Below are positions 9,847 to 60,891 of a stretch of DNA of 64,000 bases, piece after piece; position 1 is the first letter of the stretch, and each line of letters begins with the position of its first letter. A model generated the notes under the pieces. That model was given only the letters and a program-made list of their open reading frames with translations, did no database searches and was not told the DNA's origin. Location: NCBI GenBank assembly GCA_020631975.1, contig JACKGO010000003.1:170973-234972 (forward strand), in the 5' to 3' direction. The position numbers and the translations under genes were made by a program. The DNA is from Candidatus Nomurabacteria bacterium. Its GTDB lineage: Bacteria > Patescibacteriota > Saccharimonadia > Saccharimonadales > CAIOMD01.

Positions 9847-10443
9847 CTACGTATTTATGTTGATATTATTTCTATAGGAACCTGCTTGGCCAGTGGCTTG
9901 TATAAAATCGTCTTTTGCATCAAGTATAATTCTCGCAACCCTATTAGGATGGGGGCATAAAGGAAAAATAAAATTAGCTTGTTCTCCGGCTGTCTCAATT
10001 TTGAGTGTGCCAAAATTAAACATGGTAGAAAATACTCCGCGCTGTTCGCTCGTCACATCTTCTATATTGGCAAGAGAGATATGTGAAACTTTACGTTCGT
10101 ATATACTTTTTTGAAGTATTTGTATAACGTTCTTGTTTGTCACAGTAAGGCCAGACTGGTTGTACACATATGTTATAGCGATGAGTACGACGACTAGTAC
10201 AAAACCACATATAAACGCAAGTACAGTCCAAGCAGAGTATATGCTGTTAGTACTAGCCATAGTCTTAGGAAGGACTATGCTTATTAAGCTTAGAGCAAAT
10301 ACAAATGCAATAAACGATGCTGCGTAGATGACCATCAAACCAAATGGATGTTGTTTTACCGCACACAATAAACGAGCATCTCTGTCGGTGACTTCGATGG
10401 TTTTATAGTAAGCCGATTCTTTATAGCTATTTCTAAATAGCAT
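9847..10443 (-). CDS. Membrane protein with bacterial PH (bPH_2/YdbT-like) domain
   Basis: Two or three TM helices followed by ...FGTLKIETAGE...IFPLCPHP, typical of bPH_2. Confidence 0.65.
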   Translation of the reverse strand: MLFRNSYKESAYYKTIEVTDRDARLLCAVKQHPFGLMVIYAASFIAFVFALSLISIVLPKTMASTNSIYSAWTVLAFICGFVLVVVLIAITYVYNQSGLTVTNKNVIQILQKSIYERKVSHISLANIEDVTSEQRGVFSTMFNFGTLKIETAGEQANFIFPLCPHPNRVARIILDAKDDFIQATGQAGSYRNNININT

Positions 10444-30649: not shown

Positions 30650-31576
30650 TTATACCGTTTTTTCATCTGTTTGACTACGTGAAATAAATCTGGCAGAACG
30701 TTTAGTTAATTGAATATCAACACCAGACACCTGAATCACTTTTCCAGGCAACATCGTTTTGATAGCTACGGTTACTTTTTCAATAGTAGGAGTATCAACG
30801 TTTGCCGCGTTAGCTCTTCGTAGCAACATATGCACTACTTCTGTGGAGATATCGTGGGGCAATTTGCAAAACCAGCTTCTATTTAACACCAGTGTATCTT
30901 TATGTAGCCCGCGGGTAATAAGTAGCCGGAGCTCTTTGTCAATTTTTGTGTTTAATAATTGCGTGTTTTGAATTATAGCCAGTGCCTGAGCGCGTTGCTG
31001 GGTATTCATCTTGGCAACGACAGTATGCCTAATGTTATTTCTGGCGTATGCTGTATCAATATTTGTACTGTCTTCACGCCACTGCAAATTATGAGCTTTG
31101 GCGTAATTGTAGATATCACGCTTAGGAACATAAAGTATTGGCCGAATAATCGTATCGGTACTTTGCAACGAAGCAATACCTTTGCGTTTTGTGCCTCGCA
31201 TAATGTTAAGAAACATTGTTTCAATCATATCGTCCTGGTGATGAGCAGTAATAATTGCAGCAGCTTGATGTTTTTTTTGCATTCTATATAAGAATTCATA
31301 ACGTTTTTGGCGGGCCAAATCCTCGCTGGTATCATTGCCTAAAGACAACTGCGTTGTTTCGTATGTATAGCCACTATTGTTTGCTAGCTCTTCAACAAAC
31401 ATAGCATCTATGCCAGAGTCTTCTCGTATACCGTGGTCTACATGAGCAATCACAAGCGTTATATTATGTTGTTTTTTTAATAAATCTAACAGTACAACTG
31501 AATCAACACCACCTGAAACAGCTAATATATACGTGCCGTCGCTAATCTTACTATATGATAATTTGTTCAACTTCAC
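30650..31576 (-). CDS. tilS: tRNA(Ile)-lysidine synthase TilS
   Basis: PP-loop SGGVDS, 308 aa, immediately upstream of ftsH as in many bacteria. Confidence 0.9.
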   Translation of the reverse strand: MKLNKLSYSKISDGTYILAVSGGVDSVVLLDLLKKQHNITLVIAHVDHGIREDSGIDAMFVEELANNSGYTYETTQLSLGNDTSEDLARQKRYEFLYRMQKKHQAAAIITAHHQDDMIETMFLNIMRGTKRKGIASLQSTDTIIRPILYVPKRDIYNYAKAHNLQWREDSTNIDTAYARNNIRHTVVAKMNTQQRAQALAIIQNTQLLNTKIDKELRLLITRGLHKDTLVLNRSWFCKLPHDISTEVVHMLLRRANAANVDTPTIEKVTVAIKTMLPGKVIQVSGVDIQLTKRSARFISRSQTDEKTV

Positions 31577-38539: not shown

Positions 38540-38558
38540 TCTTACTACGCTGAAAACT

Positions 38559-38594
38559 AAAATAGCTCCTAGCAATAGGAGCTATTTTAGTTTT
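38559..38594 (+). terminator. Rho-independent terminator after the RRM gene
   Basis: AAAATAGCTCCTA-GCAA-TAGGAGCTATTTT followed by a T-rich run. Confidence 0.85.
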
Positions 38595-38629
38595 CAGATT
38601 TTACAACCTTGCTCGTGGAAGATATTGCA

Positions 38630-38653
38630 TAAAAAATCCGCCTTCTGGCGGAT
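38630..38653 (-). terminator. Terminator directly after the tRNA-3'-end fragment
   Basis: Minus strand reads ATCCGCC-AGAA-GGCGGAT followed by TTTTTT. Confidence 0.8.
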
Positions 38654-38667
38654 AATTTAACTCTATT

Positions 38668-38817
38668 TGGTGGGGGTGACAGGATTTGAACCCGAAGACT
38701 GCCAGTGGCAGTGTGAGTTCACGCTCATTGACGCTTGATTTCCGCGTCGCTAATTGTTTGCTTATAATGCCGCCAACTAGCACACGTGTTGAGGCTGGAA
38801 CAGCCGAGTGACCAATC
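38668..38817 (-). repeat. Pseudo-tRNA unit: Ile2-like tRNA positions ~40-49 (GATTGGTCAC), a 115-nt insert, then an exact copy of the last 25 nt (GGTTCAAATCCTGTCACCCCCACCA)
   Basis: 38668-38692 is identical to 38854-38878, and 38808-38817 is identical to 38880-38889. The insert contains hairpins GGCTG-TTC-CAGCC, GACGC-N9-GCGTC and CTGCC-ACT-GGCAG. Confidence 0.8.
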
Positions 38818-38818
38818 T

Positions 38819-38847
38819 AAAAATAAAAATACTCCCCACTATGGGAG
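38819..38847 (-). terminator. Terminator-like hairpin after the Ile2-like tRNA
   Basis: Minus strand reads CTCCC-ATAGTG-GGGAG followed by TATTTTTATTTTT. Confidence 0.6.
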
Positions 38848-38853
38848 CACTTT

Positions 38854-38929
38854 TGGTGGGGGTGACAGGATTTGAACCTGTGACCAATCGGTTATGAGCC
38901 GACTGCTCTAACCACTGAGCTACACCCCC
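38854..38929 (-). tRNA. tRNA with CAU anticodon, Ile2 (lysidine)-like; Met not excluded
   Basis: GGGGGTGTAGCTCAGTGGTTAGAGCAGTCGGCTCATAACCGATTGGTCACAGGTTCAAATCCTGTCACCCCCACCA. D-loop and variable loop resemble E. coli ileX; tilS is present in the window. Confidence 0.85.
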
Positions 38930-39071
38930 GTGTTGTAAAGGTGTCTGCCCGTCTGCTGACGGACTGCACCCCGTGGTATATATGTGCGAGCTGCCAAAAC
39001 AATGGTTAGCTGCTATAGTATACCAAACAGCACAATGATTTTACAGATACGATATAATTAGATTACACACC

Positions 39072-39512: not shown

Positions 39513-39561
39513 CACATTGCAGTTAAAGCCTTAAAATACGTTATCGTGCCTACATACTATT

Positions 39562-39697
39562 GCAGGTTCGAGCAGTGGCAGCATCGCGAAGGCTCATAAT
39601 CGCGATCAGCGTAAGCGGCGAATATATGATAAGCCAGAGAAAATCTACCATTTACAATTAACTATTTTCACGGAGCGAAGCTATATAACCACAAGGT
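39562..39697 (+). repeat. Scrambled tRNA-fMet-derived mosaic upstream of the intact gene
   Basis: Exact blocks of the tRNA in non-native order: GCAGGTTCGAG (T arm), GAGCAGTGGCAGC (D arm), GGCTCATAA (anticodon loop), ATAACCACAAGGT (39685-39697). Confidence 0.75.
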
Positions 39698-39727
39698 TAT
39701 CCCCTTCACTTCTTAACCACCCTATTT

Positions 39728-39802
39728 TGCGGGGTAGAGCAGTGGCAGCTCGTGTGGCTCATAACCACAAGGTCGCAGGTTCGAGTCCTGCCCCCGCGAC
39801 CA
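39728..39802 (+). tRNA. Initiator-like tRNA-Met (CAU), CCA encoded
   Basis: TGCGGGGTAGAGCAGTGGCAGCTCGTGTGGCTCATAACCACAAGGTCGCAGGTTCGAGTCCTGCCCCCGCGACCA is close to E. coli tRNA-fMet. Weak U1-G72 end pair. Confidence 0.85.
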
Positions 39803-39810
39803 AGAAAAAT

Positions 39811-39836
39811 CACTCACCTTGTGTGGGTGTTTTTTC
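39811..39836 (+). terminator. Terminator after the initiator-like tRNA
   Basis: CACTCAC-CTTGT-GTGGGTG followed by TTTTTT. Confidence 0.75.
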
Positions 39837-39973
39837 TTGTACGGAGTGCAGGACGAGATCCTTTCGGCAATAGCCGAACTGGTTCAGATAATTCAAGCGA
39901 TAAGCGCAGAATTATATGATGAAACCGAATTTATCATTCCAGTATTTAAGATAAATCCGGCTAGAAGCTATAT

Positions 39974-39990
39974 TCCTGCCCCCGCGACCA
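39974..39990 (+). repeat. Exact copy 2 of the tRNA-fMet 3' end (TCCTGCCCCCGCGACCA)
   Basis: 17/17 identity with 39786-39802, followed by the same AGAAAAA; preceded by GAAGCTATAT as in the upstream mosaic. Confidence 0.9.
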
Positions 39991-39998
39991 AGAAAAAA

Positions 39999-40026
39999 TC
40001 TTTAGCATTTGCTAGGGATTTTTTCT
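39999..40026 (+). terminator. Terminator-like hairpin after copy 2
   Basis: TCTTTAGCA-TT-TGCTAGGGA followed by TTTTTTCTT. Confidence 0.65.
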
Positions 40027-40160
40027 TTATCTTGGGATAAGACTCGGTTCTGCGACTCGGCAAGCTTACTTGACGATAGTCGCAGGTTGGAAGACAAAGC
40101 TTGCGCGCAGGTGCTTGCACCGAGCACAAGCTGCAGGCGCATCGAGCCTTAGCAAGATAT

Positions 40161-40177
40161 TCCTGCCCCCGCGACCA
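40161..40177 (+). repeat. Exact copy 3 of the tRNA-fMet 3' end
   Basis: 17/17 identity. A further tRNA block GTCGCAGGTT lies at 40079-40088, 72 nt upstream. Confidence 0.9.
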
Positions 40178-60709: not shown

Positions 60710-60891
60710 ATATAGTCAGTCCACCAATGACCTAGTATCCTGCTCGGGATATATGTTGGTCGTAGTCTTAGTAATGTATCTGACTTATTGCGTATGTAGC
60801 AATTTACAGTTGCGGCACAGTCCATGAATCACACATGGTTCCATTACAAAAAGCACGAAGTATATTGTTAATAACTTTATTATAGCAAATG

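Follow-up and report, generated by a model that had tools for sequence, protein, structure and literature searches.

The region described here surrounds an Ile2-like tRNA(CAU) gene and a displaced copy of its own 3′ end, in a 64,000-nt stretch of DNA (the window: positions 170,973 to 234,972 of contig JACKGO010000003.1, assembly GCA_020631975.1) that is deposited as Candidatus Nomurabacteria bacterium and is placed by the proteins of the region in Candidatus Saccharimonadales. The tRNA gene is intact, as the initial annotation had it: the ARAGORN and Rfam calls agree, both with anticodon CAT (Table 1). It is followed on its own strand by a terminator (T1), an interior, a second copy of the tRNA end and a second terminator (T2). 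An exact repeat of the last 25 nt of the tRNA had been noticed before, and it proved to be slightly longer. In the window the 25-mer GGTTCAAATCCTGTCACCCCCACCA has two occurrences, 38854-38878 and 38668-38692, against a chance expectation of none, and the exact repeat reaches 27 nt once the following AA is counted, with a start-to-start spacing of 186 nt.

A shorter piece of the tRNA, GATTGGTCAC, lies between T1 and the interior. It had been read as the 3′ side of the anticodon stem plus the variable loop, and it is an exact copy of tRNA positions 41-50 that occurs twice in the window (38880-38889, inside the tRNA, and 38808-38817; 0.05 matches expected per window). The counterpart of GATTGGTCAC is GATAGGTCAC in L029 and GATTCGTTAC in L016 (loci other than the window are given by such labels throughout), and a TTGGTC piece similar to the GATTGGTCAC region is found just 3′ of the terminator in the Ile2-like-tRNA units of other species. 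Between them, the GATTGGTCAC copy and the tail copy leave out a single tRNA base, A51, which puts the ‘split’ between the second and fourth bases of the 5′ strand of the T-stem, a small correction to the earlier description of a tRNA 3′ half split in its T-stem. The 115-nt insert with hairpins, and the terminator-like hairpins after the tRNA and after the unit, were likewise recovered. The insert (38693-38807) separates the GATTGGTCAC copy from the 25-mer copy and contains the hairpins GGCTG-TTC-CAGCC, GACGC-N9-GCGTC and ACTGCC-ACT-GGCAGT. In its conserved non-tRNA block, GCGTGAACTCACACTGCCACTGGCAGTCTTCG, a GAAC can pair with GTTC of the T-loop copy, and a 6-bp hairpin lies inside this pairing. 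Relative to dinucleotide shuffles, 38666-38819 folds with a z-score of -2.6. T1 and T2 are unrelated in sequence, and small open reading frames (ORFs) cross the units at 38601-38783 and 39819-40040.

The Ile2 label itself is plausible rather than proven. Three CAT tRNAs lie within the window, and a PP-loop (ATP_bind_3) protein of the TilS (lysidine synthase) kind is encoded at 30650-31576 on the minus strand; an Ile2 identity for one of the three would fit both, as judged from sequence.

Table 1. Parts of the units behind the two tRNA(CAU) genes, in window coordinates.
Feature	Position	Strand	Basis or comparison
Ile2-like tRNA(CAU) (‘MetB’), intact, live gene with repeated 3′ end	38854-38929	-	ARAGORN; Rfam tRNA model, 78.4 bits
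T1, proximal terminator (hairpin and T-run), directly 3′ of MetB	38820-38853	-	Consensus terminator scan (flagged 38854-38825)
GATTGGTCAC, copy of tRNA positions 41-50 (anticodon-stem 3′ side, variable loop, T-stem start)	38808-38817	-	Exact 10-mer
Conserved hairpin GGCTG-TTC-CAGCC	38793-38805	-	2/5 pairs changed on both sides relative to L029 (GGCCA/TGGCC)
Variable middle of the cassette	38725-38792	-	74% identity to L029 (aligned part); unalignable in L134
Conserved non-tRNA block GCGTGAACTCACACTGCCACTGGCAGTCTTCG	38693-38724	-	31/32 identity in L029, 29/32 in L134
Displaced tRNA-end copy, T loop to CCA plus AA, 27 nt exact	38666-38692	-	Exact repeat
T2, distal terminator ATCCGCC-AGAA-GGCGGAT, then T6	38630-38653	-	Consensus scan (hairpin 38653-38636)
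Initiator-like tRNA(CAU) (‘MetC’)	39728-39802	+	ARAGORN, Rfam
Unit u1, 188 nt: terminator, unique interior, last 17 nt of MetC	39803-39990	+	
Unit u2, 187 nt: terminator, inverted and direct T-arm 5′-side copies, conserved hairpin 40094-40136, last 17 nt of MetC	39991-40177	+	

A second array and its variation among strains

A DivIC-like gene is flanked by two divergently oriented tRNA(CAU) genes, the Ile2-like one and an initiator-like one. Behind the latter, its last 17 nt are copied twice, in the units u1 and u2, with spacings of 188 and 187 nt that are close to the 186 nt of the Ile2-like unit. The units at both genes share a common build, in which a terminator stands immediately after ACCA and is followed by a unique interior and then by the tRNA end.

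Strains were compared by means of contigs that encode an identical DivIC-like protein and have 98.6-100% DNA identity. The stack behind the initiator-like tRNA differs among them: u1 and u2 are present in the window, u2 alone in L003, u1 and u2 plus an islet in L007, and a further unit, u0, ahead of u1 and u2 in L008. Unit u1, which is thus absent from L003, is 87% identical in another species, L011. The islet is 2.2 kb long, encodes a methyltransferase and a dienelactone hydrolase, follows the last repeat in L003, L006 and L007 and is closed by a degenerate copy of the repeat. The boundaries of unit gain or loss at this tRNA fall within the 17-21-nt repeat. In L008, u0 adjoins the tRNA and brings a new terminator, and the flank seen in other strains is now found 3′ of the second tRNA-end copy. 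Each new unit thus has its own terminator, and the old flank is kept distally, with ACCA followed by TGTAAAA after the last copy. Read from sequence, the array is what would be expected of serial insertions at the tRNA end together with deletions between repeats. Variation within the species also touches the tail of the Ile2-like unit, which has two alleles; in L003, L006 and L007 its last 10 nt are replaced as a block (CACTCCTATTAGT), with 6/10 nt differing.

The Ile2-like tRNA in sister species

Species with only 75-77% identity in the DivIC-like protein still have 100% identity in both tRNAs, and the DNA behind the Ile2-like tRNA is of several kinds. Units are absent from L012, L020 and L136; in L012 an HD-domain gene takes this place and in L020 an NT5C remnant. 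L016 has a homologous unit, with a degenerate tRNA tail copy, followed by an NT5C gene. In L029 the unit is followed by a near-perfect repeat of about 100 nt, in which the tRNA end, the terminator and the initial ~27-35 nt of the interior recur, and then by a DNA methylase gene. In L134 the conserved 3′ block and the tail are the same, but both the interior and the proximal terminator differ, and a terminator of the T1 type of the window sits after the distal tail, which shows modular exchange. The terminator after the 100%-identical tRNA differs between lineages.

A larger element uses the same tRNA end. In L028 the CCA end of the Ile2-like tRNA is the exact insertion point of 7.6 kb of DNA that encodes a large serine recombinase; the core has 6 bp, CACCAA. 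Serine-recombinase genes adjoin this tRNA in several further species. The recombinase ORF of L028 (8318-9892, +) crosses the attachment junction and ends 44 nt inside the opposite-strand tRNA (9849-9924, -); the protein should accordingly have one C-terminus when the element is integrated and another when it is excised.

Rejection of a neutrally decaying tRNA duplicate

A simple tandem duplicate of the tRNA, drifting neutrally, was the scenario that the initial annotation had set against its own readings, and the data do not show it. Local alignment of tRNA positions 1-51 to the unit interiors scored no better than shuffles (p = 0.33-0.94), and several matches picked out by eye were therefore dropped; with no similarity to the tRNA 5′ part in the interiors, a decayed whole-tRNA copy, or tRNA pseudogene, is rejected. 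Relative to the window, identity at four-fold sites of the adjacent gene is only 33% for L029 and 29% for L134, which amounts to saturation. T1 is nevertheless identical at 32/34 positions in L029, and neutral decay is rejected because the GCGTGAACTCACACTGCCACTGGCAGTCTTCG block remains 31/32 identical where synonymous sites are saturated. Since this conservation is far above neutral, the unit must be under selection or have been exchanged recently between lineages, rather than drifting.

Units across Saccharibacteria and beyond

Eighty species-level Saccharibacteria loci, collected from the DivIC alignment, contain 106 tRNA(CAU) genes. A unit was scored where a copy of the tRNA's own last 17 nt, with at most 2 mismatches, lay within 3.5 kb. 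By this criterion 15 of the 106 genes have a unit, with end-to-end spacings of 136, 155, 159, 162, 173, 177, 177, 182, 183, 187, 191, 215, 219, 262 and 392 nt, and a structure (covariance) model added five more units, whose tails had decayed too far to be picked up as repeats. Short non-coding cassettes, mostly 140-260 bp and typically ~180 bp, stand behind both DivIC-flanking tRNA(CAU) genes in many Saccharibacteria, where they separate the tRNA from small islets that carry genes and have the same repeat at their bounds.

The repeated tail matches the local tRNA even where the tRNA sequence varies between species. Identity to the tRNA begins at position 52-53 in the family of the Ile2-like unit, mostly at 56-60 and once at 62 in most other units, and at 35 in L033. 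Repeat lengths are accordingly 25-27 nt for the Ile2-like unit, 17-21 nt at the other tRNA or in other species and 42 nt in L033, where the repeat starts from the anticodon loop. The interiors of different unit families cannot be aligned. A common ancestry of all interiors was considered and rejected, as pairwise tests relate only the Ile2-like unit to L016, u1 to L011 and L020, and u2 to its own strain variant.

A metagenome scan for relatives of the Ile2-like unit returned mostly tandem tRNA genes of other phyla. Units of similar size (~190 nt) were found behind tRNA-Pro(CGG) in four contigs of other bacteria (L116, L117, L128 and L131), where a terminator is followed by tRNA positions 56-27 in inverted and 27-47 in direct orientation, then by a hairpin with covariation, the conserved motif GACCGGAGCGAAGCGGAGA, and the T arm and 3′ end of the tRNA. 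Cargo genes follow these units in the four contigs; no integrase is present there, and no Rfam match was obtained (E-value up to 0.1). L116 also contains a dense array of at least 14 tRNA genes.

Conserved hairpins

The u2 family has inverted and direct copies of the variable-loop/T-stem 5′ region of the tRNA, and a 43-nt hairpin in which the bulge bases do not vary and the loop is of the CUUG type. In nine sequences, 84.6% of the cells in this hairpin are paired, versus 62.5% in shuffles and 24-43% with slid partners, and 11 of its 13 pairs change on both sides. The covariance model places it only beside the two tRNAs, always in the orientation of the tRNA. The units at both tRNAs of L067 (3560-3700, -, and 4669-4800, +) share a block of ~105 nt, ~97% identical, within the 3′ strand of the hairpin, which shows copying within one genome.

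The family of the Ile2-like unit was aligned from the window, L003, L029 and L016. Its first hairpin has two compensatory pairs, the hairpin formed by GAAC and the T-loop GTTC is present, and GATTGG-CCTGTC is a possible further pairing; in all, four pairs show double changes in a comparison of only 3-4 lineages. In L016 the hairpin inside the GAAC/GTTC pair has been replaced by a different one with the pairing kept. Covariance and fold analysis of the insert across relatives had been proposed as a check; the hairpins are conserved with compensatory changes, and the tail decays in many relatives. On the tRNA-sense strand the Ile2-like unit has several G-U and no A-C pairs. The strand of function could not be read from the 43-nt hairpin family, where 5 G-U against 7 A-C pairs are uninformative, and a kink-turn (K-turn) in that hairpin is contradicted by the covarying pairs. 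Rfam models matched the intact tRNAs and nothing over the units, both at the gathering threshold and at E-values up to 10, and ARAGORN found no transfer-messenger RNA.

Short cassettes at tRNA ends

We interpret the displaced tRNA end as the distal edge of a 186-bp cassette that carries no genes and was inserted at the 3′ end of the Ile2-like tRNA. The cassette would be a miniature non-autonomous integrative element similar to a cis-mobilizable element (CIME), a reading in which we have moderate confidence. The cassette would supply the live tRNA with a replacement end, from T loop to CCA, and with its own terminator T1, and would thereby have displaced the previous tRNA end and the previous terminator T2 by 186 bp downstream. 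Integration would be site-specific at the tRNA end, through a recombinase acting in trans, and the conserved blocks beside the repeat could be the arms of a recombination site. The units stack head to tail, and the newest one adjoins the tRNA. Alternatively, within the same reading, the units may be ‘solo-attP’ remnants of larger elements. The repeats, the family of units with its range of lengths, the differences in unit content between strains, the nested flanks and the conservation above neutral are shown by the sequences; the recombinase, the circular or other intermediate, and which of the two tRNA-end copies is the older are parts of the scheme that we infer. We favor the cassette because the extents of the repeats resemble those of attachment (att) sites, the terminators are replaced, the stacking is ordered, units are gained and lost at the level of strains, and the units are associated with islets and with a proven attachment site.

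Several observations weigh against a mobile cassette. No recombinase was found among the 20 large ORFs of the window, and no ORF with a tyrosine-recombinase motif among ~100 Saccharibacteria loci searched with a crude pattern. The serine-recombinase junctions at the Ile2-like tRNA share only CACCAA, which leaves repeats of 17-27 nt unexplained. The Ile2-like unit is fixed in the species, as all spanning contigs have the same 532-nt interval (two sets, 24 contigs read each) and no empty site was seen among them. A circle of ~186 bp of DNA is poorly suited to recombination, units could be lost by simple deletion across the repeats without any excision, and the ~100-nt repeat in L029 looks, from its sequence, like plain segmental duplication. 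Finally, hairpins with compensatory changes and conserved bulges are more typical of a function as RNA or single-stranded DNA than of duplex binding sites. The uniform size of ~180 bp, the lack of an integrase and the conserved hairpins are thus the reasons for retaining the RNA, transformation and duplication readings below at lower weight.

Of the two readings offered in the initial annotation, an att-type scar is better supported than an expressed small RNA. The repeat from T loop to CCA, the strain-variable stack behind the initiator-like tRNA, the islets and the serine-recombinase element at the tRNA all speak for the scar, but there is no integrase near any unit. The integrase-bearing element flanked by the same junctions, for which a search in sister genomes had been proposed, did not turn up, and the sole integrated element uses a different 6-bp core.

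A more far-reaching reading, to which we give a low but appreciable weight, is that the ~180-nt units form a previously undescribed class of miniature cassettes in Saccharibacteria, structured and without genes, for which the 3′ ends of essential single-copy tRNA genes are the homing sites. Folded RNA or single-stranded DNA would then underlie their mobility or function, with the 17-27-nt tail as a targeting or guide sequence in place of the duplex attP arms bound by an integrase. Such a reading appeals to the conserved hairpins and to the inverted and direct T-arm copies, and to the analogous units behind tRNA-Pro elsewhere.

If the cassettes are active, targeting of tRNA ends would persist as ~180 bp of non-coding DNA in the very small genomes of the candidate phyla radiation. 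Two essential tRNA genes would have, on their 3′ flank, a fast-evolving landing pad on which terminators and small defence-like islets are swapped, and the conserved motifs would provide a set with which to look for the recombinase. Units of this kind also break assemblies and risk being mis-annotated as tRNA fragments or small RNAs.

Alternative explanations

The units could instead be genes for structured small RNAs. Transcription would run the same way as that of the tRNA, either reading through T1 or with a start of its own, and would end at T2, and the tail could serve as decoy, guide or processing signal. We consider this somewhat unlikely. The 43-nt hairpin, with its covariation, invariant bulges and CUUG-type loop and its confinement to the two tRNAs in tRNA orientation, argues for such a product, as do the two compensatory pairs in one hairpin of the Ile2-like unit and its G-U pairs without A-C on the tRNA-sense strand, the fold z-score of -2.6, the terminator at the end of every unit and a conservation far above neutral. 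A consensus scan gave no promoter-like site between T1 and the unit, however, and no Rfam family was matched at E-values up to 10. The tail, including CCA, is degenerate while the hairpin is intact in L049, L063, L098, L093, L035 and L103, and it is partly replaced in strains L003, L006 and L007; an acceptor stem would also want a 5′ strand, and none is present. In the hairpin family G-U pairs (5) are not in excess of A-C pairs (7), and the patchy presence in species and strains is unlike that of a housekeeping RNA. In homology-facilitated illegitimate recombination after natural transformation, a route in keeping with the lack of an integrase, DNA of another Saccharibacteria strain would enter by a crossover in the perfectly conserved tRNA, and an illegitimate join of its other end in the resident T arm would leave a donor terminator and downstream DNA, followed by the resident tRNA end. 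The window does encode a ComEC-like Competence domain, PilM and T2SSE/F (competence, type IV pilus), tRNAs that are 100% identical across species are ideal anchors, and terminators and interiors have been swapped as blocks between lineages. We nevertheless judge this route unlikely, since it predicts neither the narrow length range and the recurrent junctions (tRNA positions 52-53 and 56-60), nor conserved structured modules beside the junction, nor repeated ordered stacking.

Segmental tandem duplication of the tRNA 3′ end and downstream DNA, by slippage or template switching at hairpins and with the tail kept identical to the live gene by gene conversion, is also quite unlikely. In its favor, the L029 repeat is what it would produce, the block replacement in the tails of L003, L006 and L007 resembles a conversion tract, and GAAC/T-loop GTTC hairpins stand at the junction. 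It fits poorly with the unrelated sequences of T1 and T2, with interiors that are unrelated to the tRNA 5′ part, and with a neighboring array in which perfect tails accompany unrelated interiors. The conserved non-tRNA block lies beyond the reach of conversion from the tRNA, and the same hairpin module occurs behind two tRNAs with tails that match each local tRNA.

A number of more specific mechanisms were considered and set aside. The units are not the attL/attR pair of a large serine recombinase, with a repeat of 27 nt versus the short 6-bp core at genuine junctions. No gene for an IS110 bridge RNA or TnpB guide RNA system is nearby. Miniature IS200/IS605 or repetitive extragenic palindrome (REP)-like elements do not apply to a hairpin that is not dispersed, a group I intron or split tRNA is set aside by the lack of an Rfam match and of a 5′ half, and tRNA-primed reverse transcription by the variable start of tRNA identity (position 35 to 62). 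Integron attC sites fail for want of their defining feature. A phage origin was rejected too, the two viral matches to the hairpin core being at chance level and in unrelated contexts. In viral contigs neither the Ile2-like tRNA tail nor the GCGTGAACTCACACTGCCACTGGCAGTCTTCG block had an exact match. One 41%-GC viral contig has 18 nt in common with the end of the initiator-like tRNA, ~750 nt from a serine-recombinase ORF, a match that may be due to chance. In GC-rich phages of other bacteria (L142, L144 and L146) the attP for tRNA-fMet consists of the tRNA 3′ half and a terminator between arm repeats.

Relation to known elements

Williams is said to have described, in Nucleic Acids Research in 2002, three att sublocations in tRNA genes, namely the anticodon loop, the T loop and the 3′ end. 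The unit repeats of 42, 25-27 and 17-21 nt match the three classical extents. As at tRNA att sites, a 3′ segment of the tRNA is directly repeated up to the last base of the gene, the live copy is intact, the displaced fragment lies downstream, and the incoming DNA supplies the tRNA end and a terminator; phage attP sites of the same build are seen in other bacteria. The units differ from them in being only ~180 bp long and gene-less, with no integrase nearby and with conserved hairpins that show compensatory changes. Fragments of tRNA genes are known to arise from the integration of mobile elements (PMC9897764; PMC3293823).

CIMEs known from Streptococcus thermophilus are kilobases long and derive from integrative and conjugative or integrative and mobilizable elements of Firmicutes. 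Our units, by contrast, are ~0.18 kb, uniform in size and found in Saccharibacteria, and no parent element was identified for them. The comparison is nonetheless apt in that CIMEs keep attL and attR, have lost the integration genes and accrete in tandem with other elements at tRNA 3′ ends (PMC5704250). The large-serine-recombinase element (L028/L011, probably also L058, L087 and L088) has the same target tRNA and lies on the same side, and thereby shows genuine attachment at this tRNA end in the lineage. Unlike the units, the element is 7.6 kb long and encodes its own recombinase, has only 6 bp (CACCAA) in common with its target and carries neither a terminator nor a long tRNA copy.

Integron arrays grow by the serial addition of short modules next to a fixed site, each ending in a hairpin-forming site. 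The serial short modules of the present arrays, and an AAC...GTT pairing at the junction (GAAC with the T-loop GTTC), recall them by resemblance only: the units are without an integron integrase or cassette ORFs, their hairpins depart from the attC consensus, and their repeats are tRNA ends.

Observations on the flanks of the two tRNA genes

On the 5′ side of the Ile2-like tRNA, GGGGTGCAG (38964-38972, -), 35-43 nt upstream of the gene, approximates its first 9 nt with one mismatch. The conserved promoter-like TATACTATAGCAGCTAAC (38990-39020) is ~75 nt upstream of the tRNA here and ~10 nt upstream in L016, L134 and L135, a difference in distance that hints at an insertion on the 5′ side as well. 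In L134 (tRNA at 2037-2112, -), the first 21 nt of the tRNA recur in their usual promoter context ~310 nt upstream of the intact gene, with unrelated DNA between; this copy is a 5′ counterpart of the 3′ repeats. Pieces of the initiator-like tRNA also lie upstream of it (39560-39698, +), namely a D-arm copy, GAGCAGTGGCAGC, a CAT hairpin similar to its anticodon arm (39560-39610) and ATAACCACAAGGT (39685-39698). These pieces are separated by a stretch with weak similarity to u1, at the end of which is GAAGCTATAT, similar to the -10 region that relatives have upstream of the other tRNA.

Between the gene for an RRM protein and the Ile2-like unit, a perfect 22-bp inverted repeat with a 4-nt loop (38550-38597) is probably the terminator of the RRM gene. 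Elsewhere in the window, an adenosylcobalamin (AdoCbl) riboswitch at 60725-60869 (-) scored 52.8 bits against an Rfam gathering score of 50.

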